Origin: Candidatus Woesearchaeota archaeon
GTDB lineage: Archaea; Nanobdellota; Nanobdellia; Woesearchaeales; GCA-023898365
Assembly (NCBI GenBank): GCA_023898365.1
Contig: CP060219.1
Span: 334,688 to 398,687 of the forward strand
Length of the DNA: 64,000 bases
Reading direction: 5' to 3'
In this document: in pieces, positions 33,358-52,552 of the stretch
Layout: every line of letters starts with the position of its first letter
How positions within the stretch are numbered: position 1 is the first letter of the stretch
The notes under the pieces: model-generated
What the model was told of the DNA's origin: nothing
Database searches by the model: none
What the model saw: the letters and a program-made list of their open reading frames with translations, nothing else
Position numbers and translations under genes: made by a program

Positions 33358-34344
33358 ATGTCAGAAAAACAGCAGCGTAGGGCAGCAAAAGTTCCTTTAC
33401 GAGAACTAAACACGTTTCGTGCAGTTTTTGCAAAAGATATTGATAAAAGTTGCCGTCATGAAAAACAAAAAGATTACATGCTTATCGCTCTGCATAGCAA
33501 ACACGATGTTAAAGGCTACGACATTATTGAATACGACTTTAGCAAAAAAGAACCAAGAGATTTTCGCTCAGCTATCACTAAAGTGCTGCCAACCTATAAC
33601 AAATTTGCATTTGATCAACTCGGCTCGATTGCCATCATCGAAGTTGACGAAGAATTTCGTGACAAAGAAGAACTCATCGCAAAGACCCTTCTTGAAACCA
33701 ATGCGACGGTGAAAACTGTTCTGCGCAAAGATTCGACACATGAAAATGAGTTTCGCACACAAACCTACAAGTTTTTGCAAGGCGTCGAAACAAAAATTGC
33801 GACGATCAAAGAAAATAATGTGACCCTTTCATTCGATGTTGAAGAAGTATATTTTTCTGTTCGTCTATCTTCAGAGCGAAAACGTGTTGCACAACAAGTC
33901 AAAGAAAATGAATCAGTGCTTGTTATGTTTAGCGGAGCAGGACCATACGCAATGGTGATAAAAAAAATGCATCCGTCTGCAACAGTGACTGCAGTTGAAA
34001 TGAATCCTGAAGGACACCGGTGGGCAGTGCACAACGCTAAAATAAATAAACTAGATATTACCTGTGTTAATGAAGATGTGGGCAAGCTCGCACTGGGAAA
34101 AACGTTTGACCGCATTGTCATGCCCGCTCCAAAAAACGCAGAAGATTTCTTAGAAAAAGCAAAAGAACACGCAACACAAGGAACCATTATTCATTTGTAC
34201 TGCTTTGGAGAAGAAAATGAATTAGCAGAAAAAAAGAAAAGAATAGAACACGTCTTTTCAAAAGTCACGTTTCTTGGAGACACGGTGTGCGGCCAACAAT
34301 CACCCCGCATCTATCGCTATTGTGTTGATTTTCGCGTCGATTGA
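33358..34344 (+). CDS. trm5: tRNA (guanine37-N1)-methyltransferase Trm5 / Taw2-like class I methyltransferase
   Basis: Motifs VLVMFSGAGPYAMV (cf. Trm5 MFAGVGPFA) and VTAVEMNPEG, with a Met-10-like fold arrangement. Confidence 0.75.
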   Translation: MSEKQQRRAAKVPLRELNTFRAVFAKDIDKSCRHEKQKDYMLIALHSKHDVKGYDIIEYDFSKKEPRDFRSAITKVLPTYNKFAFDQLGSIAIIEVDEEFRDKEELIAKTLLETNATVKTVLRKDSTHENEFRTQTYKFLQGVETKIATIKENNVTLSFDVEEVYFSVRLSSERKRVAQQVKENESVLVMFSGAGPYAMVIKKMHPSATVTAVEMNPEGHRWAVHNAKINKLDITCVNEDVGKLALGKTFDRIVMPAPKNAEDFLEKAKEHATQGTIIHLYCFGEENELAEKKKRIEHVFSKVTFLGDTVCGQQSPRIYRYCVDFRVD

Positions 34345-35903
34345 AAATCATCTAAATTGATCTGACCCTTACGTTTGTTCTTTTTAACCACTTCAGGCAT
34401 GGGCTCACCAACTTGCTCTTTAAGCACGCGAGCAGTTGCGGGACCAACTAAAGAAGAAAGAGAAGTCGGGTCGATCTTTTTGAGATCCCCCACTGTTTTA
34501 AGCCCGTTGCGAAACAAAATTCTTGCACGAACACGACCAACTTGCTTCAAACGAAGCAAAGCAAGAAGTTCCTCTTTAACCCCGTACGAAAGTCGAACCC
34601 GTAATCGTTCAATATGTTTAATTAGATGTTGACGCTTTGTTAACTGAGATAATTCTTTAAGTGCGTATAACAACCAATCAATGGTTTCTCGCTTAAAATG
34701 TAACTCACCAGGACGCAAACCGAACTCGTCAAGCAAAATATCCTCGCCGACTTCTTCAATCCAAGAAAGAAAAACAAGGGTTGTTTTCATCCCGTCAAGA
34801 AATTCCGCATACTCATGGTCGTACATACTTGGTGGTTGAAAAACGAACTCGTGATCATGCGCAACAATAGCTTTTTCGATCTGCTCAAGCTCCTTTGTGC
34901 GAACACGCAGTAATGGACGAATCTCCTTAGTTTTCATCAATGCTTGAAGTAACGAAAAAGGAGAAGGATCATCAGAAAGAAGCGAAAGCGCATCAAGAAG
35001 TAATTTTGCACTGTACGGATCAAGATAAAGTTCTGCAACGCGCTTACCTAAAGGAGTTGCTTCAAGTTTACGAGGAGAAGAAGAAAGAAGTGAGGAAGCG
35101 GATTGGAAACCTTTTGCGTCCGAAGATGCTGAAGCAACCAAAAAACCCCACAATTCGAGTTCACCAATAATTTTTTCAATTTTAAGAGCCACCGCCTCAT
35201 CATCACCGTATTGATCAGCATAGAACGTTTCCGAAAAAAAATCTTTTACTTCCTCTTGCGAAAACACCATACCTGAAGCAACCAAACTCAACACATACAT
35301 ACGAAGCACCGGTTCAACAGCCAACTTAGAATCAATATCCTCCGGAACACCAAGTAAATACTTATCATGCAAGAGTTCTTTTTGATCAGAAGAATCTGCA
35401 AGCAAAATAGCCTCGCCAAAATCATCCTTACCGGGACGACCAGCTCGACCCATCATCTGCAACGCCTCAAGCACAGGAATAAAATATAACCCCCGCGCAC
35501 CATACCTGCGCAAACTCTTAATCACCACACGAAACGCAGGAAGGTTAAGACCAGCAGCGAGCGTTGGCGTAGCACAAATCACCTTAATACGTTTATCCTT
35601 GAAAGCAGACTCCACAAGAGAACGCTGAGCGCTATGAAGACCTGAATGGTGGAACGCGACGCCACGATGCACCACCTTAGACAAACGCTTACATTGCTTT
35701 GTAGGAGAAGAAACAGCCTTAAGGATGTTCTCAGAAAGCTCCTCACAAGAAGCAAGAAGATCAAGTTGGCTTGCGATCGCATCAGCCTGCGCCTCAGCAG
35801 AAGCCTTCGTTGGAGCAAACACCAAGATCTGTTTATCATTCGCAATAGTGTCAAGCGCCAAATCAACCAATTGATCACCAGATCGTTCAGTGAGAGAAAC
35901 CAT
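34317..35903 (-). CDS. Hel308/Hjm-type Ski2-like helicase containing domains 2-5 only (RecA2, winged helix, ratchet, HhH). The RecA1 ATP-binding domain is absent, so this is a candidate split gene or an N-terminally truncated gene.
   Basis: The ORF begins exactly at the domain-2 boundary (DKQILVFAPTKASAEAQA). It has motif IV/V VICATPTLAAGLNLPAF and motif VI QMMGRAGRPGKD. No Walker A, DExH or SAT motif appears in any frame upstream; nt 35904-36078 is non-coding repeat DNA followed by tRNA genes. Confidence 0.7.
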   Translation of the reverse strand: MVSLTERSGDQLVDLALDTIANDKQILVFAPTKASAEAQADAIASQLDLLASCEELSENILKAVSSPTKQCKRLSKVVHRGVAFHHSGLHSAQRSLVESAFKDKRIKVICATPTLAAGLNLPAFRVVIKSLRRYGARGLYFIPVLEALQMMGRAGRPGKDDFGEAILLADSSDQKELLHDKYLLGVPEDIDSKLAVEPVLRMYVLSLVASGMVFSQEEVKDFFSETFYADQYGDDEAVALKIEKIIGELELWGFLVASASSDAKGFQSASSLLSSSPRKLEATPLGKRVAELYLDPYSAKLLLDALSLLSDDPSPFSLLQALMKTKEIRPLLRVRTKELEQIEKAIVAHDHEFVFQPPSMYDHEYAEFLDGMKTTLVFLSWIEEVGEDILLDEFGLRPGELHFKRETIDWLLYALKELSQLTKRQHLIKHIERLRVRLSYGVKEELLALLRLKQVGRVRARILFRNGLKTVGDLKKIDPTSLSSLVGPATARVLKEQVGEPMPEVVKKNKRKGQINLDDFQSTRKSTQ

Positions 35904-35948
35904 TTACTTGCAGAAGTGAAGCTTTGTTTTAAACGTTTTGTTAAAGAA

Positions 35949-36093
35949 GCAGACAACAGAAAACAGAAAAAAAAAACATGAGCCCGGGGGGATATAGGAA
36001 CGCCAACAACAATTTGGCGTTTGTGAGCCTGCATACGCTAACACGTAGCAGACAACAGAAAACAGAAAAAAAAAAACATGAGCCCGGGGGGAT
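35949..36093. repeat. Two direct copies (35949-35993 and 36048-36093, 45 and 46 nt) of the tRNA-Ile 3'-terminal 15 nt plus its 30-nt poly-T trailer, separated by 54 nt. This is an att-like tandem duplication of a tRNA 3' end.
   Basis: The string gcagacaacagaaaacagaaaaaaaaa(a)catgagcccggggggat occurs twice. The second copy is continuous with the intact tRNA-Ile. Confidence 0.8.
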
Positions 36094-36152
36094 TTGAACC
36101 CCCGACCACACGATTATCAGTCGTGCACTCCACCAGACTAAGCTACGGGCTC
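36079..36152 (-). tRNA. tRNA-Ile (anticodon GAT)
   Basis: Folded manually. Acceptor GAGCCCG/CGGGCUC, anticodon stem CACGA/UCGUG with loop CUGAUAA, T-arm GGGGG-UUCAAAU-CCCCC and discriminator A. CCA is not encoded. Confidence 0.85.
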
Positions 36153-36162
36153 GAATAAAAAA

Positions 36163-36237
36163 TGGCGCCTCCGACCAGGATCGAACTGGTGACCTTGCGG
36201 TTAACAGCCGCACGCTCCACCGCTAAGCTACGGAGGC
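36163..36237 (-). tRNA. tRNA-Asn (anticodon GTT), with 3' CCA encoded
   Basis: Acceptor GCCUCCG/CGGAGGC, anticodon stem UGCGG/CCGCA with loop CUGUUAA, T-arm ACCAG-UUCGAUC-CUGGU, discriminator G then CCA. It lies 10 nt upstream of tRNA-Ile. Confidence 0.85.
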
Positions 36238-36302
36238 ATGGCTTAGAGGGATTAAAACCCATTTATAATGTTTATTGTTTATAAAAGGGAAGATAAATAA
36301 AA

Positions 36303-37061
36303 TCAAGTATCAGTAGTTTCCAACAATCCAAGCATTTGCACAACTTGTTCCAATGAAACAACATTACGTGGATCCACCCCGTGTACCTGTTCATACCACA
36401 ATGAAGCAACATTGCTTCTTGGAGATTGTATGACTAATTCTCTAATTGCATGGATCCTTCCTGAAGATTTCCTCGCAGTCATTGCAGAAACTGCCGTTTC
36501 AAAACAATACTCGTTGTAACCACCTCCAAAAAAAAGCTCATTATCTTTGAAAAGATATAGTTCTTCAGGGTGAAGAGGTAAACCAGAATCATATCTTGTA
36601 AAAATCACTTGATCAATCAAACCAACTTCAACTAGAATACTTGTTGCTGCAGCATAATGATGAGGGGTTTCTAGTGCAACAACTCCAAAAGGTGATCGAT
36701 TAGATCGTAAGCTGAGAAAAGCTAAGAGTGCATCCAGATATGCTTCCGCTTCGCGTCGAATTTCATCAGTCTCAATATAATGCATGTGACTAAGATGTAA
36801 ATAAAAAGGATGTACAAGCATCACCATTTGGTCTCCTTCTTGAGGCTTTTGATGATCTCTTGCGTGTTCTTGACAGGCGATCAGCAATTTTTTAAAATCT
36901 CCTCTTTGATAACAGTCATCATCCTTAGATTCTCGATTTCTCAAGTTAACTTCGATATGGGAAGTCCAACCCGTGAAATTACGATTCAAAACGGCCGAGC
37001 TAGCATTATTTGTTGCAGGTAAAGCAGTTCTTAAGTTGGGATCGTAAAAATTTGACATCAA
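36303..37061 (-). CDS. Hypothetical protein (252 aa) located between tRNA-Asn and tRNA-Thr
   Basis: Uninterrupted ORF. His-rich segment HPFYLHLSHMHYIETDE. No family recognised. Confidence 0.45.
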   Translation of the reverse strand: MMSNFYDPNLRTALPATNNASSAVLNRNFTGWTSHIEVNLRNRESKDDDCYQRGDFKKLLIACQEHARDHQKPQEGDQMVMLVHPFYLHLSHMHYIETDEIRREAEAYLDALLAFLSLRSNRSPFGVVALETPHHYAAATSILVEVGLIDQVIFTRYDSGLPLHPEELYLFKDNELFFGGGYNEYCFETAVSAMTARKSSGRIHAIRELVIQSPRSNVASLWYEQVHGVDPRNVVSLEQVVQMLGLLETTDT

Positions 37062-37144
37062 ATCTGGAAACTATAAAGAATTTATTAAAGTTTCTTTATT
37101 TATTACTTTCAAGTAGTTTCGAATAGGGGTTGAGAAAAAGGAAA

Positions 37145-37226
37145 AGCCTCCGGTGAGATGAAACAAAGCAAAGCTTTGTGGATCTCACCTCAAACTAAAA
37201 AACAAGCCTCCGGTGAGATTTGAACG
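37145..37226. repeat. Two extra partial copies of the tRNA-Thr 3' end downstream of the intact gene: 37145-37160 (16 nt, followed by an inverted repeat that recreates the T-stem GGUGAGAU/AUCUCACC) and 37205-37226 (the 22 nt of the T-loop through the 3' end)
   Basis: agcctccggtgagat occurs at 37145, 37206 and 37307, the last being the real tRNA 3' end. Confidence 0.75.
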
Positions 37227-37306
37227 TTTGAGAGCGAAAGTGAGCAAACCACGGAAAAGTACGGAAGGGCTTTGACAGTGTCACGAAGGGAGTTCAAGAA
37301 ATTAAG

Positions 37307-37378
37307 AGCCTCCGGTGAGATTTGAACTCACGACCGCCTGATTACAAGTCAGGCGCACTACCACTATGCTACGGAGGC
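37307..37378 (-). tRNA. tRNA-Thr (anticodon TGT)
   Basis: Acceptor GCCUCCG/CGGAGGC, anticodon stem CCUGA/UCAGG with loop CUUGUAA, T-arm GUGAG-UUCAAAU-CUCAC and discriminator U. Confidence 0.85.
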
Positions 37379-37418
37379 ACAATCGGAAAAGAACTGCAAA
37401 CGATTTATATTAATTGCG

Positions 37419-37844
37419 CTATAGGAGCCAAACAATCGTGGCGATAAGAGCTCCGAGCACGCCACCAACGAAGACTTCTAAGAAAGTGTGGCCTGGAACA
37501 ACAGAAACTGGTTTCAGTTTGGCTTTTTCTGCAAGTTTATTTAAGAGCACTGCTTGATCACCAACGCTTTTTCGCATGCGAAAGGAATCTACGAGGACGA
37601 TGAGAGCGAAGATGAACGTGACAACGAGCAGATTGCCAAACCCATCATAATAAAACACGGCAAACGTCAAAGAAGAAACAAGGGATGCGTGCATGGAAGG
37701 CATGCCTCCGGTGGTGAGAAGCTCGATGAGAACGATTTTTGGAAAGGATCTGTTTTTCATTCCGTGATGGATCGTCGTAACAATTTTACCTAAGAGTGTT
37801 ATCACCCAGGTCAATAGCAACGTTATCACAATTCGTTCAATCAT
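37419..37844 (-). CDS. Divergent PAP2 / DUF212-family membrane protein (acid phosphatase / vanadium haloperoxidase-related)
   Basis: 141 aa with ~4 TM helices. Motifs SMHASLVSSLTFAV, LVDSFRMRKSVGDQA and VPGHTFLEVFVGGVLG match the DUF212 pattern. Confidence 0.6.
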   Translation of the reverse strand: MIERIVITLLLTWVITLLGKIVTTIHHGMKNRSFPKIVLIELLTTGGMPSMHASLVSSLTFAVFYYDGFGNLLVVTFIFALIVLVDSFRMRKSVGDQAVLLNKLAEKAKLKPVSVVPGHTFLEVFVGGVLGALIATIVWLL

Positions 37845-38800
37845 ACTACTCGCCTAAATCTTGTGTTTAAGAGCCCCCATTCAATAAAAAGCATGAACAG
37901 AGCAAATAACATCAAATAAAAGGACAATTCCCTCTTTAATAAAGTTTGTGTGCTTTCTTGAGGAATGGTAGCGATGGCTTCTTGCACGTCCTCAAGCGTT
38001 TCTAGGTGGAAATAGGATCCGTCAGTAATGTTTGCTAACTCTGTTAGCGCATCATCCTGATAGACAGCAGACACATTATAGTACTCCGGCAAATAACCAA
38101 CAAGACCTTCGTCCGTGCCAATACCAATGCTGTGAATGCGCACTTGATTTTGCGTCGCGTATGCCCCGCTTTGTTTGATAGAATCTGAAAGAAAGGGACC
38201 GTACGTGTTTCCCCCATCAGTAATAAGGATGATGATCTTTGCTTTTTCTGGATTGTTTAACAAAAGGTTCGTCGCAGAAATAATGGTGCCAGGAATGTCT
38301 GTTCCTGACGCCTTTGCGACCTTTATCTCATTGATCGCATCTTTTGTTGCGAATTTATTTGTTTCATAGACTGATCTGACAAGCGGCACCCCTGAGAAAC
38401 TGATCACCGAAAAAGTTGTCTCGAACGCGAACGCATCAACAAGAGAGTTTGAAAACGATTTGGCAACTTCAAGACGTGAGGGTGGCAAATCTTCAGCAGA
38501 CATAGATGCAGAATTATCAATAGCGATAACAACATCTGATTCGCTTGCTTCCGCTGTGTACCAAAACACTGGTGAAGAAACTGATAAGATTATAGCAATA
38601 AAAATCACGACGCGAATCAAGAGTTGGAAGGAGTTTTTTGTTAGCTGATGACTGCCAGAGACTCGTCGTAAGGTTTCAAAATTTGCAAAGCGCATACCTC
38701 GAAATCGTGCATGCTTTAAGGAAAGATAATGGGAGAAGACTAAGAAAGGGATTGCTAAAAGGAGCCAGAGATATACCGGTTCAGTAAATGATATTTGCAT
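37841..38800 (-). CDS. vWA-domain membrane protein, BatA-like
   Basis: Two N-terminal TM helices followed by a vWA domain with MIDAS motif VVIAIDNSASMSAED and ILITDGGNTYGP. It overlaps its neighbour by 4 nt. Confidence 0.75.
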   Translation of the reverse strand: MQISFTEPVYLWLLLAIPFLVFSHYLSLKHARFRGMRFANFETLRRVSGSHQLTKNSFQLLIRVVIFIAIILSVSSPVFWYTAEASESDVVIAIDNSASMSAEDLPPSRLEVAKSFSNSLVDAFAFETTFSVISFSGVPLVRSVYETNKFATKDAINEIKVAKASGTDIPGTIISATNLLLNNPEKAKIIILITDGGNTYGPFLSDSIKQSGAYATQNQVRIHSIGIGTDEGLVGYLPEYYNVSAVYQDDALTELANITDGSYFHLETLEDVQEAIATIPQESTQTLLKRELSFYLMLFALFMLFIEWGLLNTRFRRVV

Positions 38801-38811
38801 AAGTCACCTAG

Positions 38812-39711
38812 TTATGTTCTTGGTTTAAATAACCGTTTACGAAAAAAAGTAATTAGTTTGTCAAAATATTCTTCGTTTGTTTCTAAGACAATGAAATCTC
38901 CTTGCGATCCTGTGAAAATACTGTTAAGTGAGTTTTCGTCCTTTTTGACAAGTTCTTCATATTTTTTTGAAAAATCTTTTGTGTCAATATACATAGCTTC
39001 GTTTGTGGAAGGATTTTCGACCATGAGTTGACCGATGTCCTTTGGTAAATGTCGGTCTCTTGGATCTCGCACGCCAATACCAATAACAGAAAAAAATTGG
39101 CTAAAATTTCTAATGTAATTCGTCCAGTTTGGCTCAAGCCCAATAAAATCTGAAATGAGAATAAGAATACCGCGCGGATTAAGAAATGCAAGCGTTTCTT
39201 TTAGAGGACGCACAATACTTTTTGGACCACCATAATTACGTACGTCATGAAGTTCGTGTTTGATGCCTTGCAAAATCATCGGCCCGATGTTTGGCTCTAA
39301 TCGAACGCGCAAACCATCACTGAACATGCCAAAGCCAACAGCATCGCCACTGCGTAAGATCGCATCAGCAAGGACGTATGCAACTTCTGCGGCATATTCT
39401 ACCTTTAATTTCTGTGTGGAAGAAAACAACATTGAATCTGAAACATCAAGCAAAATAAATACGCGGAAATTACGATAAACCTCAAACTCTTTTACAAGAG
39501 GTTTATTTGATCGAAGCGAAACCTTCCAATCAATAAGCGACGCATCATCTCCAAATTGGTACGCGCGGTATCCTGCAAACTCCATACCTTGGCCTTTAAA
39601 TGATGTGGACCAATCACCTTCAAGTGCATCAATAAGCATATCTCTATTTGCAGCAATTGTTGCATGTTTTTTAGCAACTTCAAGATCAAGTTCGATATGT
39701 CGGAGTTCCAC
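38812..39711 (-). CDS. DUF58-family protein, the MoxR-associated partner
   Basis: 299 aa. FAGYRAYQFGDDASLIDWKV and ILLDVSDSM are typical of DUF58 proteins encoded next to MoxR. Confidence 0.75.
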   Translation of the reverse strand: MELRHIELDLEVAKKHATIAANRDMLIDALEGDWSTSFKGQGMEFAGYRAYQFGDDASLIDWKVSLRSNKPLVKEFEVYRNFRVFILLDVSDSMLFSSTQKLKVEYAAEVAYVLADAILRSGDAVGFGMFSDGLRVRLEPNIGPMILQGIKHELHDVRNYGGPKSIVRPLKETLAFLNPRGILILISDFIGLEPNWTNYIRNFSQFFSVIGIGVRDPRDRHLPKDIGQLMVENPSTNEAMYIDTKDFSKKYEELVKKDENSLNSIFTGSQGDFIVLETNEEYFDKLITFFRKRLFKPRT

Positions 39712-39712
39712 T

Positions 39713-40699
39713 TTACATCACAGGAACTTTCTTTAAGATCTCATCAATAATCTCATCGGAGGAAATGTTTTCAGCTTGTCCTTCGAAGTTGAGGATGATG
39801 CGATGCCTAAGAACAGGTTTTGCCACGGCTTTAATATCAACGGGAGAAACAACGGTGTTGCCACTCATAAGCGCATGCGCCTTGGCTGAAATAAAGAGTG
39901 CGATCGATGAACGAGGACTAGCGCCGTAGTTAATGTATTTGCCAAAGTCAATACCATACTCTTTTGCGTGCCTTGTCGCAGTAACAATGCGAATAATATA
40001 CTGTTGCATTTTTTTGCTCAATACAATGTTGTTAACAATTCGCTGTGCTTCGACAATTTCTTCAGCGCTAAAAACTGGCTGTAAATTAAATGAGTCAAAG
40101 CTCTTTGTCGTCATATTTGTTTCAAGTATCTCGACTTCTTCAGTTGCAGTTGGATAGGACATTTGAAGTTTAAACAAAAAACGATCAAGCTGCGCTTCAG
40201 GAAGCTTGTACGTTCCAAGCTGCTCTACGGGATTTTGCGTTGCCATAACAAAGAATGGTTTAGGTAATTGAAACGTCTCTTTTCCGATCGTCACTTGACG
40301 CTCCTGCATACCTTCTAGCAAAGCTGATTGAACTTTAGGAGGACTTCGATTGATTTCATCGCCAAGAACAAAATTTGCAAAAATAGGTCCTTTAACTGTG
40401 TAAAAGCCTTTTCCTTCTTCGTATGTTGTAATGCCTACAATATCAGAAGGAAGCAAGTCCGGCGTGAATTGAATACGAGAAAATGACGAACCAGTAATAG
40501 TCGAAAGCGTACGAATAATAAGTGTTTTTCCAACGCCTGGAATACCTTCAAGCAAAACATGACCATCGCAAAGCAACGCTTGAAGAAGAAAGTCAATGAT
40601 GTCCTTCTGACCGATAACGATCTTACCCATCTCTTTTTTTACAATAGAGAATCGCTTCCCAAGACTAGCGACATGTCTCGCCAACTCACCCTCGTCCAT
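39713..40699 (-). CDS. moxR: MoxR-family AAA+ ATPase
   Basis: Walker A GHVLLEGIPGVGKT, Walker B, and an overall match to the MoxR/RavA subfamily. 328 aa. Confidence 0.9.
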   Translation of the reverse strand: MDEGELARHVASLGKRFSIVKKEMGKIVIGQKDIIDFLLQALLCDGHVLLEGIPGVGKTLIIRTLSTITGSSFSRIQFTPDLLPSDIVGITTYEEGKGFYTVKGPIFANFVLGDEINRSPPKVQSALLEGMQERQVTIGKETFQLPKPFFVMATQNPVEQLGTYKLPEAQLDRFLFKLQMSYPTATEEVEILETNMTTKSFDSFNLQPVFSAEEIVEAQRIVNNIVLSKKMQQYIIRIVTATRHAKEYGIDFGKYINYGASPRSSIALFISAKAHALMSGNTVVSPVDIKAVAKPVLRHRIILNFEGQAENISSDEIIDEILKKVPVM

Positions 40700-40722
40700 A
40701 AGGGAAAATAGAAGCTGCTTTC

Positions 40723-40730
40723 TTTATAAA
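40723..40730. promoter_or_regulatory. Palindromic TATA box TTTATAAA, 24 bp upstream of the moxR ATG on the minus strand. A second copy at 40767-40774 lies 16 bp upstream of the plus-strand gene at 40790. Together they form a divergent promoter pair.
   Basis: Read from the sequence. The spacing fits leaderless archaeal transcripts. Confidence 0.4.
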
Positions 40731-40789
40731 TCTTGCTGAACAGCCCCAGAAAAAAACAAACAAAAATTTATAAATGAGAACATGTCAAT

Positions 40790-42082
40790 ATGTGGAGGAT
40801 GAGTGACCTAAAAGAGGTGGGTTACATTAGCAAAGCGTCTAGAAAGTTGCTTAAAGAAGCTACTCTCAAGAAGATTGCTTATGTAAATACAAAGCGGAAT
40901 ATCACCGAGAAGGAAGTATACCATCTTGTTAAAGATTTTCTTAGAGAATTTGTCGCAATCGAACACGAAGTAAGTATTGAAGAGTTGCGAGAAGAACTCA
41001 AAAAAGCATTTTTTGAAGCAAAAACGCGAACAAGAATCAACCACTTAATCAGTAAACTCGCATATGTCGAATACAAAGATGAAAATTCATCTCCGGAAAC
41101 GTTACGATCCATATTAAATGAACTTCGCTCCGTTGTCGCAAGCATTTCTGCTGATCAGCCACAAAAAGGCGGATTATTTGGAAAACTCTTTGGACGAAAA
41201 AAAGAAGAGATTGAAGATGTTGCAGAAGTCGACGAAACAATTGATCAAACAGGTTCATTCACACCAACAGAAAATTTAGGTCAAGAGTTCTATCCTGAAA
41301 CAAAAAGCAATCAACCATTCTTAGAAAAACAAGAAACAGAACCAAAAGATGCATTTTTTGATAAGGAAACAAAGGATACAGGAGAGAATAAAGAAGAACT
41401 AAAAGAGAAACCTTCAGAAGAGGATGCCTATGCGTCGTTTTTCTTTTCGGGCAAAAAAACATCTCCAAAAGCAGCCCCTTCAGACGATGAAACACATGCT
41501 AAAAATGAGCAAAATGAAACGTTCTTTTCTAAAATGAGCAAAGAAAGAAGGGCTGAAGAACATAAAGAAGTTGCAAAAGATCCTTCCCCAAGCAAAGAAC
41601 CAGTTCAAGAAAAAGACCGTGAAGTAAAAGAAGAACAAGTCAGGGGTGCAGAGGAAAAAGAGAAAACAACTTCTGTCGAGAAACAAGACAAGACAGCGAT
41701 TCCAGACATCTTTAGTAAGACAAATACTGTTGCAGAAAATGATTCAAAAACTGCAGAAGAACAGAAATCTCAAGAAGCAACCGAAGAAAAACTTGAGTTG
41801 CCTGATAGTTTCGAGGAAGAACCCCATCATAAGGAGAAAAAACATCACACCATCCATATGAAGACAAAAGCTCCTGAAGAAAAACCTCAAGGAAAGAATA
41901 ACGAAGAGAAAATAAATCATCTCGCAAGCGAAGTAAGTGCCGCAATCCACAAAAAAGATTCGACGGGCGCAAAGAAACAATATGCGCAGCTCCTTGAGGT
42001 CTACGAGTCGCTTCCTGATAAAGAAAAAGAAAATTGGTTCGATAGAATCAATATGTTCTATGAAGCAATTAAGATGTTGTAA
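40790..42082 (+). CDS. Highly charged Lys/Glu-rich low-complexity protein (430 aa), hypothetical
   Basis: Long ORF. The central ~250 aa are KE-rich and low in complexity. Both ends are conserved-looking and helical. Confidence 0.55.
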   Translation: MWRMSDLKEVGYISKASRKLLKEATLKKIAYVNTKRNITEKEVYHLVKDFLREFVAIEHEVSIEELREELKKAFFEAKTRTRINHLISKLAYVEYKDENSSPETLRSILNELRSVVASISADQPQKGGLFGKLFGRKKEEIEDVAEVDETIDQTGSFTPTENLGQEFYPETKSNQPFLEKQETEPKDAFFDKETKDTGENKEELKEKPSEEDAYASFFFSGKKTSPKAAPSDDETHAKNEQNETFFSKMSKERRAEEHKEVAKDPSPSKEPVQEKDREVKEEQVRGAEEKEKTTSVEKQDKTAIPDIFSKTNTVAENDSKTAEEQKSQEATEEKLELPDSFEEEPHHKEKKHHTIHMKTKAPEEKPQGKNNEEKINHLASEVSAAIHKKDSTGAKKQYAQLLEVYESLPDKEKENWFDRINMFYEAIKML

Positions 42083-42136
42083 TAATTCTTCTTGCTCACG
42101 TTTTTTGAAAAACTAACCAGTAAATAAGTTTAAGCA

Positions 42137-45100
42137 CTAATTATATTTTCTGTTTCTCCAGCGATCACGCACGTAGCTGACAATCATCATAAGGATCGTT
42201 ATTGCAATAACCCCTCCTACTGCAAGAACAACCCGTTCAGAAAGTAAATCGGTGAGGGTCACCATACTAAAAAGACCTCTTGGAGAATCAAGATTTATTT
42301 CATTCTTCTCATTATCAATTAGATACTTACATCCATTTATGATGTTATCAAGCTCGGTTAATGCTTGAGAGATAGGAATACTTGATGCTCTTCGTTCAAG
42401 CTCGGTAAGCAGTTCGTTCATTTCAGCACAGGCAGGGTTTGAAGCGAGAAGGTCTCGAGCAAACGTAACTTTTACTTTGTATGCTTCTTCATCGTCAGTT
42501 GATTTCTCAAGAGAGTTGATATGAATTGTTGCGGAGTCGCTTGCAACGGGATCGTCTGTTGTGACATTCACGACGATTTCATACGTGCCACTCGTGCGAT
42601 AATTGCCAAGAGTAAGTAACGTAGATGCGTTCTGCCCAATACCAAGTGAAGCAACGTAATCCTCACTGAATGTTACCGTAACATTTTCAGAGCCGGCAAT
42701 TGCGTTAAAATTAATTCCGTAGAGCGAATCATCCCAGGTGTTCACAACAGTGATGGGAACCGTGACCGTATCATTTTCATAAACGGCAACTACATCGCTA
42801 ACCACTATTGAGAACGGTTCAGGAGAATCAACTTCTTCCTGGAAAGGCACAGTAACTGTTGTGGTTACTGTTCTTGTTCCGCCAGGATTGTTTGATGTTT
42901 GCACATCAATTACAGGATCGGGAACATTAGTAATGACAATGCGAACCGTATTCGAAGAAACATATGCTCCTGCGTCATCAGTTGCGTTGAAGACCACATC
43001 ACAGTACCCTAATGATGTTGGAGTAATGGTTAAAGACGTATCTGTTATGCTCAGTGTTGCAACAGAGCAAGATTCGCCGTAGGCTAAAGAGAAGTTTAAG
43101 GTTGACGATTCCGCACCATCAAGCAAACCATTTGCGCTGGTATCATCATCTGCATCGTAAAAACGCTGAACGCTGTTACGATATATAAAATAATTTGCAA
43201 GTGCAGTTGTTTGTGAAACAGAGAAGTTATCAAGAGGACCATAAAATACAGGAGGACGATTAAGATTGGCAATAGTAATATTCCAACTAAAGTTTGCCGT
43301 GCTATAATACGCATCAGTTGCACTTACGACAATATCATGTGTTCCCGCGGTTGAAAAGTTAAATGATCTGGTGTAATTTGAATTGACCCCCGGGTCGACA
43401 CCAGGCAAATTAAGTTTCTGCACACCATCAACATACCATCTGTAAGAAATATTATTATTTATCTGGGTCGTGTCGTTTGTCGCGAGCGCATCAAACGTAA
43501 CAGTTGCGTTTTCTGAAAAATTGATGGTGATGTTTGTCAAACCACCAACGACAAACCATGAAGTGTTTAGTGAGGTATTTGACATGAAAGGAGTCACTTG
43601 GGTAAATTGAGGGGGAACAGATTCGTTGTAAATGGTGATGTTAACAAGCTGCCAATCGACCAACCCACCCGCATCAGTAACTGAAGCGTTTGCTTCGTAC
43701 ACCCCATACTCTCCTGATTGAGGAACAAAAGAAACAGTCACTTCATTGACATCCGTTTTTGAGTAAGCAAAGCCCGTTGGTGATGCCCCTGTAAAAGCAA
43801 AGTTAAAGGTCAGATTATCATCAAGAACAAAAAAATCAATATCAGTTGCGTAAAAAACATTTTCATAGAGAACATCTTCAACAAGAATGCCAAAATTGAT
43901 GGCATCAGACACATTGTCTTGATTATTGTCCCATATTGGCGCATCGTTTGCATTGCCTATTTCAAAGGAAAGAACTTCATAATCGCACACATTTGCAAGA
44001 TCACAGACCGAAACATTCAATGTTTTATTTCCAACTTGCGCATTTGTTGGTGTAAAATTCATCCAATAAAGCGTCATGTTACCTTGCACCAGACCAAGGT
44101 TTGACGCGTTAAATCCTGCTTCGTATGCAAACGACCAAGTAAGGTTGTCTCCGTCGCGATCAATTGCGGTAAAGTATGATGAACCAAGAATGCCTTGCGT
44201 ATAATTAACAAGAGAAACAGTCATTACAGGCACCGAATTGTTACGAATAGTGATGTTTGCAATAGCAGTTGTTATAGCCTCACCATCATCAACATACACT
44301 TCGAAGAGGTAATTTCCAATTAGACCTGGACCGACTGTAAAATTAAATTCTCCCGATGTGCTATTAATAGTGAAATTAGAATGGTTTGTTGAAAACGTTA
44401 AGGTATCGCCTGCATATGTTAGTTGGTCAACATCAGAATAATTAAGTGGTGAGGAAAACGTTGCATTCACATACCACGTAAAATTTGAAAGATTGTATAT
44501 GCCGTCGGTTAGTTCGTAAATTACCGGAGCATCATTTAGGTTTAAAATGTTAAACGTGACATTATTCTCCGTATAGCCTCCATGATCATCAGTTACTCGA
44601 ATGCGGACGTTTCGGCAGGCGACGTGGTCATTTGTCATAATTTGGTTGATCACGATAGAAGCGTTCGAACCGTTCACTAAGGTGGTGAATGACCAAGGAT
44701 TTGAAAGGGAGCACGTGCGGGGCGTGATAGTGAACGTGATATTGTCTGCAACATCTGCATCGGAAGCGTTGATATAAAACGTGAAGAGATCTGACTGATT
44801 AGTATCAGGAGTGACTAGGTTCGATGTGATCTGCGGCAATTGATTAACAGCTGAAACGTTAATGGTAAAAGAGGTTTCAACTGGCGGCAATAAACTTGCA
44901 TTGTCGCTAATGTTCATATACACCGTCCACAATCCTCTGTCAGCAAATTGAGGCGCGTTGCTTGGACGGTTAAAGGTAACATACCCTTCCGTGTTTGATG
45001 ACTGAACAAAAATAATTGAAGCAAGATCAGTGCTCATGTTAAAGGTGAACGGTTCGTCTCCTTCCTCATCAAACCCAGAAATTGAATAATTAAACGTGAT

Positions 45101-45775
45101 GTCTTCTGTCGCCTGTTGATTCGTTAAATTTGGTAAAAAATATGCTTGATCATTTACTTCTGCAACTGTGTAGGTTACGGTAATTCCTAAGAGCGAGGGA
45201 GTGTCATCTTTTACATAAAAAGTAAAATTGGTGTCACCAATATGTGCTGCTAAAGGTATGCACGTGACTAATCCCGCCCCAGAAATATCGCAGTAGTTTG
45301 TTCCGTCCGTTTCTAAAAAGGTCAGCGCATCACCATCGGGATCAAAAGCTGAAAGCTGTGTTTGGAAAACGACATCTTCTGTTAAGAGCTCATCAGTTGC
45401 ATTTGGAAGGTTAGGAAGGGAATTATTAATGGTGAACAATTTTCCTGCGGTGGCGCTTGTCGAACCATTCCACAACGTCACATTACAACTCCATCGTTCA
45501 CCACGCTGCGCAATATAGGAAAGTAACGTCGTGCGATTGTCAGTGAACGGAATGTTTGCAACTGTCGTGTAAGGAGAACTGCCATTATACCAAGTCACGT
45601 TTTGTTGTACGGTGTCAATTGAGGGTTTCCAAGAACAGATAATGTTGTCTCTTGTTGTAGGAGTTGACGGCGAAATGCTCGGCAGCGTAGAAAAATTTAC
45701 TGCAAGCGCAAATGCTATGATGAAGAGGGCAAGCGAAGTCACAACAAGTGTTTGGAAGAGGTCAACTCGTTTCAT
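42137..45775 (-). CDS. Giant cell-surface glycoprotein-like protein (~1213 aa from MKRVD) with a signal peptide, a sequon-rich beta-rich ectodomain and a C-terminal TM anchor
   Basis: Signal peptide MKRVDLFQTLVVTSLALFIIAFALAVNF, dozens of NxS/T sequons and the C-terminal TM helix VVLAVGGVIAITILMMIVSYV followed by a basic tail. The track ORF starts further upstream at 45841 and overlaps the RHH gene. Confidence 0.7.
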   Translation of the reverse strand: MKRVDLFQTLVVTSLALFIIAFALAVNFSTLPSISPSTPTTRDNIICSWKPSIDTVQQNVTWYNGSSPYTTVANIPFTDNRTTLLSYIAQRGERWSCNVTLWNGSTSATAGKLFTINNSLPNLPNATDELLTEDVVFQTQLSAFDPDGDALTFLETDGTNYCDISGAGLVTCIPLAAHIGDTNFTFYVKDDTPSLLGITVTYTVAEVNDQAYFLPNLTNQQATEDITFNYSISGFDEEGDEPFTFNMSTDLASIIFVQSSNTEGYVTFNRPSNAPQFADRGLWTVYMNISDNASLLPPVETSFTINVSAVNQLPQITSNLVTPDTNQSDLFTFYINASDADVADNITFTITPRTCSLSNPWSFTTLVNGSNASIVINQIMTNDHVACRNVRIRVTDDHGGYTENNVTFNILNLNDAPVIYELTDGIYNLSNFTWYVNATFSSPLNYSDVDQLTYAGDTLTFSTNHSNFTINSTSGEFNFTVGPGLIGNYLFEVYVDDGEAITTAIANITIRNNSVPVMTVSLVNYTQGILGSSYFTAIDRDGDNLTWSFAYEAGFNASNLGLVQGNMTLYWMNFTPTNAQVGNKTLNVSVCDLANVCDYEVLSFEIGNANDAPIWDNNQDNVSDAINFGILVEDVLYENVFYATDIDFFVLDDNLTFNFAFTGASPTGFAYSKTDVNEVTVSFVPQSGEYGVYEANASVTDAGGLVDWQLVNITIYNESVPPQFTQVTPFMSNTSLNTSWFVVGGLTNITINFSENATVTFDALATNDTTQINNNISYRWYVDGVQKLNLPGVDPGVNSNYTRSFNFSTAGTHDIVVSATDAYYSTANFSWNITIANLNRPPVFYGPLDNFSVSQTTALANYFIYRNSVQRFYDADDDTSANGLLDGAESSTLNFSLAYGESCSVATLSITDTSLTITPTSLGYCDVVFNATDDAGAYVSSNTVRIVITNVPDPVIDVQTSNNPGGTRTVTTTVTVPFQEEVDSPEPFSIVVSDVVAVYENDTVTVPITVVNTWDDSLYGINFNAIAGSENVTVTFSEDYVASLGIGQNASTLLTLGNYRTSGTYEIVVNVTTDDPVASDSATIHINSLEKSTDDEEAYKVKVTFARDLLASNPACAEMNELLTELERRASSIPISQALTELDNIINGCKYLIDNEKNEINLDSPRGLFSMVTLTDLLSERVVLAVGGVIAITILMMIVSYVRDRWRNRKYN

Positions 45776-45938
45776 GTGAAAGTAACCGCTTAATTGTTTT
45801 ATTTTTCTGAACATAGGTCTTTGTCTTTGCTGCGAGCTCATCTAAGACCAGTTCTTTAATCGTTTGCTGAGAAATAACTGATGCTAAACGCAAGCGTTGA
45901 TGCAAGTCGTCAGGTAAAGCAATATTCAGTCGTCCCAT
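45762..45938 (-). CDS. Small ribbon-helix-helix (CopG/Arc/MetJ-like) protein, 58 aa. Unannotated in the ORF track.
   Basis: Manual translation: MGRLNIALPDDLHQRLRLASVISQQTIKELVLDELAAKTKTYVQKNKTIKRLLSHETS. The N-terminal beta-strand plus helix (RLNIALPDDLHQRL) is the classic RHH signature. Its stop overlaps the surface-protein ATG. Confidence 0.55.
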   Translation of the reverse strand: MGRLNIALPDDLHQRLRLASVISQQTIKELVLDELAAKTKTYVQKNKTIKRLLSHETS

Positions 45939-45953
45939 GTTACATCCTACACA

Positions 45954-46100
45954 TTAAGTTTTTTTGCCTACTGGTTCAAGTGCTTGCGCATCCTTAAGCC
46001 AGGAGATAACTAGTTCTTTGAGAGAGGTTTCTTCAAGTGTTGCGATCATTTTTAGCTGATGATGCAATTCTTGCGGTAATTCAATATGTAAATTCGCCAT
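45954..46100 (-). CDS. Small ribbon-helix-helix protein, 48 aa, a paralog of the gene downstream. Unannotated in the ORF track.
   Basis: Manual translation: MANLHIELPQELHHQLKMIATLEETSLKELVISWLKDAQALEPVGKKT. It has the same RHH signature. Confidence 0.55.
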   Translation of the reverse strand: MANLHIELPQELHHQLKMIATLEETSLKELVISWLKDAQALEPVGKKT

Positions 46101-46103
46101 AGT

Positions 46104-46148
46104 CAATTAGTTAGCATAGTTCGCTTAGTTCACTTAGTTTCCTAAGTT
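46104..46148. repeat. Five tandem 9-bp direct repeats (NNNTTAGTT: caattagtt, agcatagtt, cgcttagtt, cacttagtt, tcctaagtt) between a TTTATAAA TATA box (46177-46184) and the RHH ATG. Candidate iteron-type operator.
   Basis: Exact 9-bp periodicity of the TAGTT core at 46108, 46117, 46126, 46135 and 46144. Confidence 0.6.
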
Positions 46149-46210
46149 CGTTTACTAATTCATAAGAACTGCGAAATTTATAAAGGTGTTGATTGAAAAA
46201 AGAACAATAG

Positions 46211-48274
46211 TTACTTCTTTGCCCACGTTAATGAATACGTAATTTGCAAGAATAACCGATGCAGATCGTAAAAGACCATGTCCTTTTGCTGCTGCGTTAA
46301 TGGGTCGAACACCTCTTTTAATTCAAAATATTTGCGCTTTGCAATCTCCGTTTCTTGAAATTCGAGGGCTAAGAGTGCATTACGAACACCTAGCTTAATA
46401 CGTTCCACAGGATTTCCTTCGAGATCCAATTCTTGCACAACACGATGAACGTCGCGTTCTTCAACAACGCTAATTTGATACACGAGCATCCGAAGTTCTT
46501 CGATAAGCAACGGAATATCTGCAAAAGTTACTCTGCGATGTTTGAACTCGAACTCAGAAACCTTTGTGTTAAACGATAAGAAAATCTTCTGCAACGTTTC
46601 GGACTTAATTTTTGTGCGAATTTCCTCAAGCAATTCGTTTGATTCGTACTCAAAAGCAAGATCAAACGTTTGTGAAAAAAAGAAGCGACTGAAATCCATG
46701 AGCGAATCAAGAAGCTTTTCAAGAGCGTCTTTTGCAGGATCATTTCCTAACGAAAGAAGTTTATTTTCAAGTGCGGCGAGTTTTACGAGTAAATCATTCT
46801 TTTGGGTTTCCCTGATAAGAATCTGCTTTCGAAATGAAGAAAGCAAGAACCAACCAAGCGTGACCAGCGCTTTATTAATCTTCGTTGAGAATGCACGGTA
46901 TAACACTGCAAGCACAGCAACAGAAAGAATACCGACCATGATAACCCCTGAAAAGACAGGGTTTGTTTCTTCAAAAAAAGAAGGAGATTGCACACCAATA
47001 CAAGGAGAGCAAGGCCCACCACAATCAACACCCTCTTCATCTTGGTTTTTTATACCATCAAAACAAGTCTCGCATGGCTCGCAAATAGGCCCGCCACAAT
47101 CAACACCCACTTCATCATAATTTCTAATGCCATCATGACAATTCTGGCACGGAGCGCAATACGGTCCACCACAATCAATTTCTTCCTCTTCATTATTTAA
47201 TTGGCCATCAGTGCAATTGCCACACGCAGGACAGGGACCCCCACAATCAACACCCTCCTCGCCTTGATTTTGTTCGCCATCAAAGCACGTCAGCAAATAT
47301 TCACATTCTTGCCAGTAATACTTTTTATACTCATTAGGATCACATGCATAAATATCGACACATTTGCGTCGCTGCGTGCCATTACGCAAACACGCACCCC
47401 AATCAGCACATTTCCATAAAGAGGTACAATCGGTAATACTCACACTCGAAGAGGAAGGAGAAGTAGTTTCTTCTTGTACTTCTTGTCGGCAGTTAACTTT
47501 AATTCTCACCAAATTACTTTGAGCGGAAAGATCACCTGGGTCCGTGGCAGTGAAAATAACATACTCCTCTGCGCAAGTAGAGCCTCGAATAAGTACTTCT
47601 CCAGTATCTTCAACAATCACAATATTAACGGAAGAAGTTGGCGTTACCGAAAAATTCAACGTATCACCGTCAGGATCATCAAAATAATCGTTAAGCCAAA
47701 AAACACTGTACAAAATATCTTCTTGAAGCGTTTGATCAGGAATAGGAGATTCTAAATTTGGAGGATCGTTAATATCTAGAACAGTAAATGTGTAGATGGA
47801 AGACGCATTGTTGTTGTCACATCCACTGTTGTCAACAACTTCAATTAATGATTGGTGCAGACCAACAGAAGCTTGAAATCCGTTCAAAGAAAGTGTTGTC
47901 CCAGTGAGCGTAGTGTTCATTTCAAAAACTTCAGTGGCAGAAATAGTATATCCTCCCTCATCAATAATTGAAATGACACACTCATACGCATTATCAACAA
48001 GCGCTGTTGATTGGTTAAAAGTTGCTGAACACCCAGAAAGATCGATAACTGGACGTGCATTAAAACACATTTGCACAGACCCTGTCGCCTTCCCCGAAGC
48101 ATCTGAATTCGTGTCGTGATACATAAATCGCGCAACACTACCTAGTAAGAGAAGATTCTGAGCTATTAAGAAGATCGCTACAAAGAGCACAATTCCTGTA
48201 AACAAACGATCAGATTTCGTTCGAGTAGCAGCAAGATGCTCAAGTGGTTTTTTCTTGTGTTTAGCGCGCTTCAC
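46211..48274 (-). CDS. Surface protein (687 aa) with an N-terminal TM/signal anchor, an ectodomain containing 4 tandem 25-aa Cys-rich CGGP repeats, a second TM helix and a cytoplasmic coiled-coil tail
   Basis: Repeat units of the form C-x-DG-x-x-N-x-x-E-E-G-VDCGGP-C-x-x-C, occurring four times. The underlying ~75-bp nucleotide repeats (ggcccaccacaatcaacaccc) lie at ~47013, 47089, 47164 and 47236. The TM helix VIMVGILSVAVLAVLY is followed by a helical K/E/L-rich C-terminus. Confidence 0.65.
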   Translation of the reverse strand: MKRAKHKKKPLEHLAATRTKSDRLFTGIVLFVAIFLIAQNLLLLGSVARFMYHDTNSDASGKATGSVQMCFNARPVIDLSGCSATFNQSTALVDNAYECVISIIDEGGYTISATEVFEMNTTLTGTTLSLNGFQASVGLHQSLIEVVDNSGCDNNNASSIYTFTVLDINDPPNLESPIPDQTLQEDILYSVFWLNDYFDDPDGDTLNFSVTPTSSVNIVIVEDTGEVLIRGSTCAEEYVIFTATDPGDLSAQSNLVRIKVNCRQEVQEETTSPSSSSVSITDCTSLWKCADWGACLRNGTQRRKCVDIYACDPNEYKKYYWQECEYLLTCFDGEQNQGEEGVDCGGPCPACGNCTDGQLNNEEEEIDCGGPYCAPCQNCHDGIRNYDEVGVDCGGPICEPCETCFDGIKNQDEEGVDCGGPCSPCIGVQSPSFFEETNPVFSGVIMVGILSVAVLAVLYRAFSTKINKALVTLGWFLLSSFRKQILIRETQKNDLLVKLAALENKLLSLGNDPAKDALEKLLDSLMDFSRFFFSQTFDLAFEYESNELLEEIRTKIKSETLQKIFLSFNTKVSEFEFKHRRVTFADIPLLIEELRMLVYQISVVEERDVHRVVQELDLEGNPVERIKLGVRNALLALEFQETEIAKRKYFELKEVFDPLTQQQKDMVFYDLHRLFLQITYSLTWAKK

Positions 48275-51311: not shown

Positions 51312-52552
51312 CAGACCTTCCTCCTTGAGCGCATAACAAAGAAAATGATGACAACATTTGAAACAAGAACAATAAGGACGAGCACCACAATAAGACCGAT
51401 GCCTGACGAAGAAGACTCCTTTGCGCCACCTACAACTTGACCAGTTACCTCGCCAAACTTCTCTAAAGAAACTTCGTCTGGTGCAATCACCGCAGAATAG
51501 ATGTCGCTTCGCACCTTCCCATCATAATGCAACGTCACATCAAAATCATACGTGCCAGGCAATATATCCTTTGTATCCCAAAACCCTTTGAGAACAGCGC
51601 TTGAAAACGCAGGCAAACGTTCAGTAGGGGTTTTAAAGGAAGTTACTTCGGCACCGTTTGTCTCCCGCAAGATAACTTCAGCATAGAGTTCCTCAATAGG
51701 ATTATTCCATAAACTGCGTACCAGAAGATCGATGCGAGCAATTTCTCCAAGATGATATGAAGAAACTGCAAAGCTTGCCAATTCTACCGAAAGAGATCCT
51801 GCTTCAAAGATACGATCCTTGATAAGCGATTCTCCATCATACGTAATTGATGCTTTCAACGTGTACGTACCAGGGTTAGGCGGCGTCCATAACGCAGTAA
51901 GTTTTCCTTCCTCTTTTGAGGGAAGCGAAATTTCAGAAGAGGTAACTGTGCCAACAACCTCATTAGCAGGGTTAAGAACGGTGAAGGTTGCGCGCACTGC
52001 TCGCAAAGGATCAGTTCCGACATTCATCGCGGAAACAATGAACTCTACAACATCCGTTCGAGGAACTGCGGTAACTTCAGCTTTAAGATATTTCCCTGGA
52101 TAAGGAACATTAAAACGGAATTGAGAAATAACTGCGGTCGTTGCGGCAATAATGCCATTATCAGTTGCAACAGAATTAACTTCTCCATTACCAAGAGATT
52201 CAGGAAGAAGCAAAATAACCATTTCGAGCATGTGAAGGCCGGGTTCGATATCTCGTGGAAAAGTAAAACTAAACGAGACCGTTTTTTTCTCATCACTCTC
52301 ACGAACCGTAATAACACCAATATCTGATTTGACCGCATCAGATAAGACGCCTGTTGGATACACACTTACTTTGAAACTCTCCCTGTTCGGATTAAGAATG
52401 TCAAATGATAACTGAACAGTCTGACCAGGAGCATAATCTATCAATCGTGCTGCAGGAGAAACAGTAAGGGCAGAAACTTGCGTAACACAAAGCACACTCA
52501 CTAACAAAAGCAAGCCAAGCAACAAACCTTTACTTTGTGTTAATTGTTTCAT
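51311..52552 (-). CDS. Surface protein (413 aa) with a signal peptide and a C-terminal TM anchor; a paralog of 48796-49944
   Basis: Signal peptide LLLGLLLLVSVLCVTQVSA. C-terminal IGLIVVLVLIVLVSNVVIIFFVMRSRRK. Start codon overlaps the stop of the giant gene in an ATGA arrangement. Confidence 0.6.
   Translation of the reverse strand: MKQLTQSKGLLLGLLLLVSVLCVTQVSALTVSPAARLIDYAPGQTVQLSFDILNPNRESFKVSVYPTGVLSDAVKSDIGVITVRESDEKKTVSFSFTFPRDIEPGLHMLEMVILLLPESLGNGEVNSVATDNGIIAATTAVISQFRFNVPYPGKYLKAEVTAVPRTDVVEFIVSAMNVGTDPLRAVRATFTVLNPANEVVGTVTSSEISLPSKEEGKLTALWTPPNPGTYTLKASITYDGESLIKDRIFEAGSLSVELASFAVSSYHLGEIARIDLLVRSLWNNPIEELYAEVILRETNGAEVTSFKTPTERLPAFSSAVLKGFWDTKDILPGTYDFDVTLHYDGKVRSDIYSAVIAPDEVSLEKFGEVTGQVVGGAKESSSSGIGLIVVLVLIVLVSNVVIIFFVMRSRRKV

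Follow-up and report, generated by a model that had tools for sequence, protein, structure and literature searches.

The window, by which we refer to the whole 64,000-nt stretch analyzed here, has a G+C content of about 40% throughout and contains the archaeal RNase P RNA at 19309-19637, identified with Rfam. Its three tRNA genes are all encoded on the minus strand, were scored at 65 to 74 bits by Rfam, and were also called by ARAGORN: tRNA-Ile(GAU) at 36079-36152, tRNA-Asn(GUU) at 36163-36237, and an intact tRNA-Thr(UGU) gene at about 37306-37378 (RF00005, 74.2 bits). Between tRNA-Asn and tRNA-Thr lies an ORF of 252 amino acids (36303-37058, minus strand, ATG at 37058), and past tRNA-Ile a 528-aa Hel308-like helicase with Helicase_C, archaeal domain 4, and HhH domains is encoded at 34317-35903 on the minus strand. 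Along this strand, the tRNA-Thr gene is followed by an 80-nt spacer, a partial copy of its own 3' end (copy B), a run of six T residues, a hairpin, a second partial copy (copy A), and the sequence TTTCCTTTTT. After about 75 further nucleotides come the 252-aa ORF, tRNA-Asn, tRNA-Ile, a repeat of the tRNA-Ile 3' end, and the helicase gene.

The source of the tRNA-Thr repeats is the last 21 nt of the gene, at 37307-37327. Within them, the 15-mer AGCCTCCGGTGAGAT occurs exactly three times in the window, at plus-strand coordinates 37145-37159, 37205-37219, and 37307-37321, the third occurrence being the 3' end of tRNA-Thr(UGU) itself on the minus strand. When up to two mismatches were tolerated, no additional match was found across the 64 kb, and 100 dinucleotide-preserving shuffles gave an expectation of 0.03 matches versus the 3 observed, which rules out a chance origin of the copies. 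Repeat search and sequence reading delimited copy B (GTTCAAATCTCACCGGAGGCTT) to 37204-37225 and copy A (ATCTCACCGGAGGCTT) to 37144-37159, both on the minus strand. Copy B is identical to the gene over 21 nt (37205-37225 corresponding to 37307-37327), starting at the beginning of the T-loop at G53/T54 of the T-arm, while copy A is identical over 15 nt (37145-37159) and starts at A59 of the T-loop. Both run to the discriminator and end one base past it, at an A residue (37144 and 37204) that the two fragments share and the gene lacks. The lengths of 16 and 22 nt given in the earlier note hold if this shared base is counted, but identity to the gene itself amounts to 15 and 21 nt. Likewise, its three copies are all present and exact, but span 177 bp from first to last rather than 170 bp.

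All three copies are direct repeats on the strand of the tRNA, where the intact gene precedes both fragments, and the borders are sharp (identity 21/21 in copy B and 15/15 in copy A). The gene and copy B are separated by 80 bp (37226-37305, minus strand) that show no similarity elsewhere in the window, and copies B and A by 44 bp (37160-37203, minus strand). Repeat search detected no similarity among the spacers and the three trailers, or between these and the rest of the window. Such sharp borders between unrelated flanks fit recombination junctions and do not fit a decaying tandem gene duplication; tandem duplication by slippage was rejected on the same lack of similarity. An assembly artifact was ruled out for the tRNA-Thr copies as well. 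Over 36107-46827 (10.7 kb), including all three copies, the window shows 100% identity to an independent Logan contig assembled from run SRR12358675, so the pattern is not the product of a single assembler.

Neither ARAGORN nor Rfam reported a tRNA or tRNA-like match in 37062-37305, and the rest of the window yielded no additional degenerate pieces of the 3' ends of its three tRNAs. As tRNA gene pieces that occur separately from a complete gene in the genome of a DPANN-type archaeon, the fragments resemble the split and permuted tRNA genes of Nanoarchaeota and Thermoproteales. However, the 3' half of a split tRNA begins downstream of position 37/38 and has a leader complementary to that of its 5' half, whereas only the last 15 to 21 nt are present here, there is no partner 5' half, and a complete tRNA-Thr(UGU) is encoded alongside. 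The short length, the intact gene, and the missing ARAGORN and Rfam matches argue against a split-tRNA 3' half.

Copy A is part of an imperfect palindrome at 37152-37189 that is predicted to fold into a two-tier hairpin (RNA fold -21.8 kcal/mol, z = -3.6). Its outer stem of 8 bp pairs GGTGAGAT (37152-37159) with ATCTCACC (37182-37189) around a 22-nt loop, within which an inner stem of 7 bp, ACAAAGC/GCTTTGT (37163-37169 and 37173-37179), closes a 3-nt loop. One of the outer arms is the T-stem portion of copy A. The inverted repeat with a 22-nt loop described in the earlier note is present, but its description as T-arm-like is only partly apt, as the loop comprises 22 nt instead of 7, and the arms of the palindrome (17 and 18 nt) reach 10 nt past the tRNA-derived bases. 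A second inverted repeat, of 7 bp, encloses copy B (37189-37232; -13.7 kcal/mol, z = -2.35), with the arms CTCAAAC at 37189-37195 and GTTTGAG at 37226-37232. The 80-bp spacer at 37226-37305 showed no significant fold (z = +0.36).

These structures, together with the T-runs next to them, raise the possibility that the fragments are functional parts of the locus. They might be stacked terminator or insulator modules that halt tRNA-Thr transcription ahead of the 252-aa gene, or else, as in the "decoy" of the earlier note, RNA elements of the tRNA-Thr trailer or of an antisense transcript that would pair with the tRNA or its precursor. On the tRNA strand, copy B is followed by T6 (37197-37202) and copy A by TTTCCTTTTT (37144-37135), which contains T3CCT5, versus a longest T-run of at most T4 in the gene's own trailer. 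A TATA-like box is located about 24 to 31 nt ahead of the ATG of the 252-aa gene (37058), just past copy A. In line with a function, the 111-nt fragment region folds better than shuffled sequences on both strands (z = -3.4 and -3.1), the 36 nt of fragments contain no substitution, and an independent fragment in another archaeal contig, described below, also has a T-arm-like hairpin before it and T5 after it. However, archaeal termination is not known to require more than oligo-T, so a copy of the tRNA end would be unnecessary for this purpose. Moreover, a second acceptor strand in the precursor would favor misfolding, as seen in the minimum-energy fold, and would more likely be harmful than useful. 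No Rfam family matched the fragment region, and the arrangement is not conserved, being absent from the other tRNA-Thr genes with the same 3' end in 7 nonredundant contigs. Hairpin A is stable, but the nearest T-run is 7 nt away. A scan for consensus terminators reported none here, but its bacterial model accepts only loops of 3 to 8 nt and could not have reported hairpin A with its 22-nt loop. Considering both sides, we regard a functional role of the fragments as improbable, and the name decoy, which implies a function, has no evidence behind it.

The tRNA-Ile duplication that the earlier note placed about 1 kb away is likewise present. It consists of a direct repeat of 46/47 nt on the minus strand (35948-35993 and 36047-36093), composed of 15 nt of the tRNA-Ile 3' end, from A59 onward, and 31 to 32 nt of trailer. 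In structural terms, the start of the fragment (ATCCCCCCGGGCTCA) coincides with that of copy A. The two copies differ in an A10 versus an A11 run, lie 53 bp apart with a period of 100 bp, and enclose a spacer containing an 8-bp hairpin. The edges of this repeat, at 36107 and 35977, are where two Logan contigs end, and neither spans it; the tRNA-Ile repeat may therefore be an assembly artifact.

Integration of elements into tRNA genes typically leaves a direct, same-orientation repeat of the tRNA 3' part with the intact gene at one end. Such a repeat starts in a loop used for crossover (anticodon loop or T-loop), its end coincides with the tRNA 3' end or lies just beyond it, and between the repeats there is foreign DNA with an integrase gene or pseudogene. 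The tRNA-Thr repeats have the orientation, the intact gene, and both borders of this arrangement, and the tRNA-Ile fragment also starts at A59. What separates the tRNA-Thr repeats is only 44 and 80 bp, with no foreign DNA carrying an integrase gene or pseudogene. The statement that both tRNA loci carry integration-type scars is thus borne out in the att geometry at tRNA-Thr and in the analogous repeat at tRNA-Ile, but not in any cargo or integrase. Decayed att-type scars of successive site-specific integrations at the T-loop region are nevertheless the best-fitting explanation for the two tRNA-Thr fragments, given that they are direct and downstream of the gene, that their borders fall within the T-loop and at the end of the tRNA, that the junctions are sharp, and that the spacers are unrelated.

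From this geometry we infer the following history. Two successive integrations, with integrases crossing over in the T-loop, would have left partial duplications of the tRNA-Thr 3' end, each event rebuilding an intact tRNA at the proximal junction and displacing the previous 3' end downstream. Copy A would then be the oldest fragment, the original 3' end, which still precedes what appears to be the original oligo-T terminator and the host flank. Copy B would be the product of the second integration, and the present trailer of the gene would derive from the last element. The inserted DNA would subsequently have been almost wholly deleted, leaving a residue of 44 bp from the older insert and of 80 bp from the most recent one. 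The fragments themselves would now be without function, while transcription of tRNA-Thr probably stops at the T-runs behind copies B and A (T6 and T3CCT5), before it reaches the promoter of the 252-aa gene.

Several observations speak against this reading. Nothing recognizably foreign lies between the repeats, with spacers of 44, 80, and, at tRNA-Ile, 53 bp. It would be an awkward history for three separate inserts to be deleted almost completely, each to less than 100 bp, with the cores left perfect. The repeats at tRNA-Ile and at a tRNA-Glu gene of another contig (see below) reach 31 and 15 nt into the trailer, which is longer than expected for an att block. Finally, copy A and the fragment in locus L007 (see below) keep a hairpin pairing the T-stem, which would be unnecessary for a pure relic. 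Owing to these points and to the lack of cargo, integrase, and attP, we give the decayed att-type scars about an even chance.

Some of the same observations would be accommodated by a rearrangement that is independent of any integrase. A T-arm hairpin formed in single-stranded DNA might stall replication or undergo cleavage. In the ensuing repair, template switching or fold-back priming might place a copy of the tRNA 3' end close by, along with filler DNA, and both the quasi-palindrome at copy A and the inverted repeat enclosing copy B would be by-products of this process. Indeed, the fragment borders in the T-loop coincide with the tip of the hairpin, the extension of the copy A palindrome by 10 nt past the tRNA-derived bases is like that of an inverted duplication, and a 7-bp inverted repeat does enclose copy B. 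Trailer sequence within the repeats at tRNA-Ile and in locus L006 is like a segmental copy, and the absence of integrase and cargo is in accordance with this origin. However, the spacers copy no local sequence, and slippage alone cannot supply them. Moreover, a duplication blind to structure would not respect the tRNA end, yet both tRNA-Thr fragments terminate no more than one base from it, and all fragments are direct and downstream, as integration predicts. We thus consider repair-driven rearrangement unlikely, although it is the alternative to which we assign the most weight.

Across the 38 ORFs covering the window, Pfam searches identified no integrase, transposase, or Cas1 family member, and no family B polymerase was matched among the scanned ORFs. 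The neighboring genes are chromosomal and include those for Pelota/eRF1-like, Trm5/Tyw2, PEP synthase, and AlaX-like proteins, a MoxR-DUF58-BatA operon, and a DUF212 protein. At 10469-11623 on the plus strand, 25 kb from the repeats, a 384-aa protein is encoded that comprises the MCM AAA+ and lid domains only and has no N-terminal domain; short archaeal MCM genes are often carried by integrated elements. Elsewhere in the window, two very large surface proteins are predicted on the minus strand, a 3746-aa protein that contains beta-helix/NosD and laminin-G domains (52549-63789) and a 1234-aa protein that contains an Ig-like domain (42137-45841). Very large surface proteins are typical of DPANN episymbionts.

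The helicase encoded beside the tRNA-Ile repeat is 100% identical to the NCBI entry H6502_01845. It begins at the second RecA domain, and the N-terminal ATPase half is absent nearby and was not located in the window. However, the best 120 homologs listed are all 503 to 548 aa long, and none of them has a precomputed match to an N-terminal DEAD-type helicase domain. Since these homologs are equally short, the truncated helicase represents a lineage-wide split or stand-alone gene, and the candidate explanation that it was a casualty of integration was rejected.

The 252-aa ORF had been called an orphan, and the approximately 1.2 kb between the tRNA loci had been proposed as the remnant of an integrated element; neither view stands. 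Although Pfam yielded no match for the ORF, seven homologs at 35 to 49% identity were found, in addition to a 100%-identical shorter call of the same gene. The family shares invariant motifs, e.g., HPFYLH, and C62 is invariant in all eight sequences; a second cysteine, in the motif FFGGGYNxxC, is conserved in the seven full-length ones. The structure model is confident (pLDDT 84) and predicts an isochorismatase-like cysteine-hydrolase fold with an extra helical N-terminal region of about 75 residues. The loci of the homologs have no detected tRNA genes, and the neighbors there are aEF-2 or radical-SAM genes. No relatives were found in viral contigs, and both GC content and codon use of the ORF are ordinary for the window. 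The ORF is an ordinary conserved enzyme-like gene of a small, eight-member family and not part of a mobile element; a role as mobile-element cargo was ruled out by its conserved family, the homolog loci away from tRNA genes, its ordinary composition, and the lack of viral relatives. Its position is in accordance with this conclusion. An integrated element is bracketed by two copies of one core, and the ORF lies outside every repeat pair, as the tRNA-Thr fragments are situated between tRNA-Thr and the ORF and the tRNA-Ile repeat lies beyond tRNA-Ile.

We also looked for the repeat core in other sequences. The 21-nt core was not found in 2.9 million viral contigs. In genomes and metagenomes it gave three and six matches, respectively. 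Every matching contig had only one copy, which formed the 3' terminus of a tRNA-Thr gene with the anticodon UGU or GGU; some of these genes contain introns, and all belong to Woesearchaeota or Nanoarchaeota. In these collections, the att core that the earlier note proposed, at 22 nt, to seek on an element thus occurred, as the 21-mer, solely at tRNA-Thr 3' ends. Matches of the 15-mer in viral contigs occurred inside unrelated coding sequence, by chance. An 18-nt and a 14-nt match in the low-GC phage contig L029 lie in the structural-gene region of the phage and are at chance level. An element carrying the core was therefore not retained as a candidate, all 21-mer and 15-mer matches in viral, genome, and metagenome contigs representing either tRNA-Thr genes or chance matches in coding sequence. 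No extra fragments were present beside the other tRNA-Thr genes with the same 3' end in the 7 nonredundant contigs. Conservation of the fragment pattern in distant relatives, which according to the earlier note would favor a structural or regulatory role, was not found in the contigs compared, which are distant and not syntenic. The loci of helicase homologs at about 50% identity are not syntenic either, the best relative of the DUF212 neighbor gene is only 43% identical, and no close relative with an empty or occupied site was found; in view of the value of 43%, the databases may lack this lineage and its elements.

Two intron-containing tRNA-Thr genes with the 21-nt 3' end of the window's tRNA-Thr were read by eye. 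The one at 2394-2505 of locus L006 was missed by ARAGORN, and the other, at 3418-3505 of locus L007, was called tRNA-Pro(AGG) by ARAGORN.

A word search within 2 kb of the tRNA genes detected in the sampled archaeal loci revealed similar repeats at two further genes. In locus L006 (4165-5052; JBAZVO010000005.1, Woesearchaeota), the last 12 nt of tRNA-Glu(UUC) and 15 nt of trailer, together 27 nt, recur about 785 bp downstream. Between these repeats lies one ORF of 212 aa, encoded on the opposite strand, for which neither a Pfam match nor a relative in viral contigs was found, and the interval looks like a one-gene insertion at a tRNA end. In locus L007 (4567-4790; JBBSYT010000050.1, Nanoarchaeota), the last 13 to 15 nt of tRNA-Arg(CCU) are found again 127 bp downstream, with a short T-arm-like hairpin in front of this copy and T5 behind it, and the 125-nt spacer forms a row of predicted hairpins (z = -3.2). 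Counting the two genes in the window, 4 of about 15 nonredundant tRNA genes bear such repeats in this small, nonrandom sample, for which a rough estimate from the word search gives about 0.3 twelve-base matches by chance. A T-arm-like hairpin is kept in two of the distal fragments, copy A and that in L007. No tRNA genes were detected in 20 additional Woesearchaeota loci that were sampled.

It is tempting to speculate that small hairpin-bearing inserts, from 44 bp to about 0.8 kb in size, recur within nested tRNA 3'-end repeats with a T-loop start in Woesearchaeota and Nanoarchaeota through a process not yet recognized. Miniature nonautonomous cassettes could be mobilized by a T-loop-specific recombinase acting in trans, or tRNA genes could maintain landing-site arrays; in either case the repeats would not be random relics of large elements. 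We give such a process a low probability. The att-scar reading, in contrast, gains support from the recurrence of such repeats in the lineage and from the existence of tyrosine integrases in the group, as a related woesearchaeotal locus (L065, 3657-5647) carries a 264-aa tyrosine-integrase gene (PF00589) beside an Hjc resolvase gene, upstream of the helicase. L065 represents one strain variant; in sibling contigs encoding an identical helicase protein, the upstream genes differ or the sequence ends before this region.

The variation among these repeats also bears on transposons that target tRNA genes. Casposons insert at tRNA 3' ends and generate target duplications of 14 to 15 bp, and the spacers could be remaining ends of such an element. 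Copy A and the tRNA part of the tRNA-Ile fragment, each 15 nt long, come near this length and, like casposon duplications, are short copies of a tRNA 3' end. However, repeat lengths are not constant (15 nt in copy A, 21 nt in copy B, 46 nt at tRNA-Ile, and 27 nt in L006), sequence reading revealed no terminal inverted repeats in the spacers, and neither Cas1 nor a family B polymerase is encoded by the scanned ORFs of the window. Footprints of casposons or similar transposons are in our view highly improbable.

Partial tRNA genes generated by element integration are documented and widespread in archaeal genomes (PMC9897764), and the tRNA-Thr fragments most likely represent a new instance of this known relic type. 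They share with the att repeats of archaeal viruses, plasmids, and islands a direct repeat of the tRNA 3' part in the same orientation, downstream of the intact gene and ending at the tRNA 3' end, and the arrangement of the repeats in series fits successive insertions. PYG1 of Pyrococcus yayanosii is flanked by 44-bp repeats at tRNA-Gln, and documented archaeal cases enclose 9 to 23 kb of element DNA, integrase included (PMC9897764). In contrast to these cases, the repeats described here measure 15 to 21 nt and have a T-loop start, and the DNA between them amounts to just 44 and 80 bp and holds no gene. The blocks of identity extend from the T-loop to the tRNA 3' end, as in the T-loop class of att sites, and the T-stem arms could act as inverted core-binding sites. 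The T-loop is reportedly among the preferred crossover sublocations in tRNA genes in the 2002 work of Williams, where this class is said to have been defined mainly on bacterial elements with identified integrases; for the fragments described here, in contrast, neither an integrase nor an attP partner is known.

Fragments of this kind also have practical consequences. They can lead tRNA annotation astray and interrupt assembly from short reads; both Logan contigs end at the tRNA-Ile repeat. To our knowledge, integration traces of this kind have rarely been described in this lineage, and few integrating elements have been described in DPANN. The finding would gain greater weight only if tiny hairpin-bearing inserts at tRNA ends prove to be systematic in these reduced genomes. 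If the fragments are scars, they would record, on a modest scale, earlier movement of mobile elements in a DPANN archaeon, with tRNA-Thr and tRNA-Ile as hot spots of insertion.
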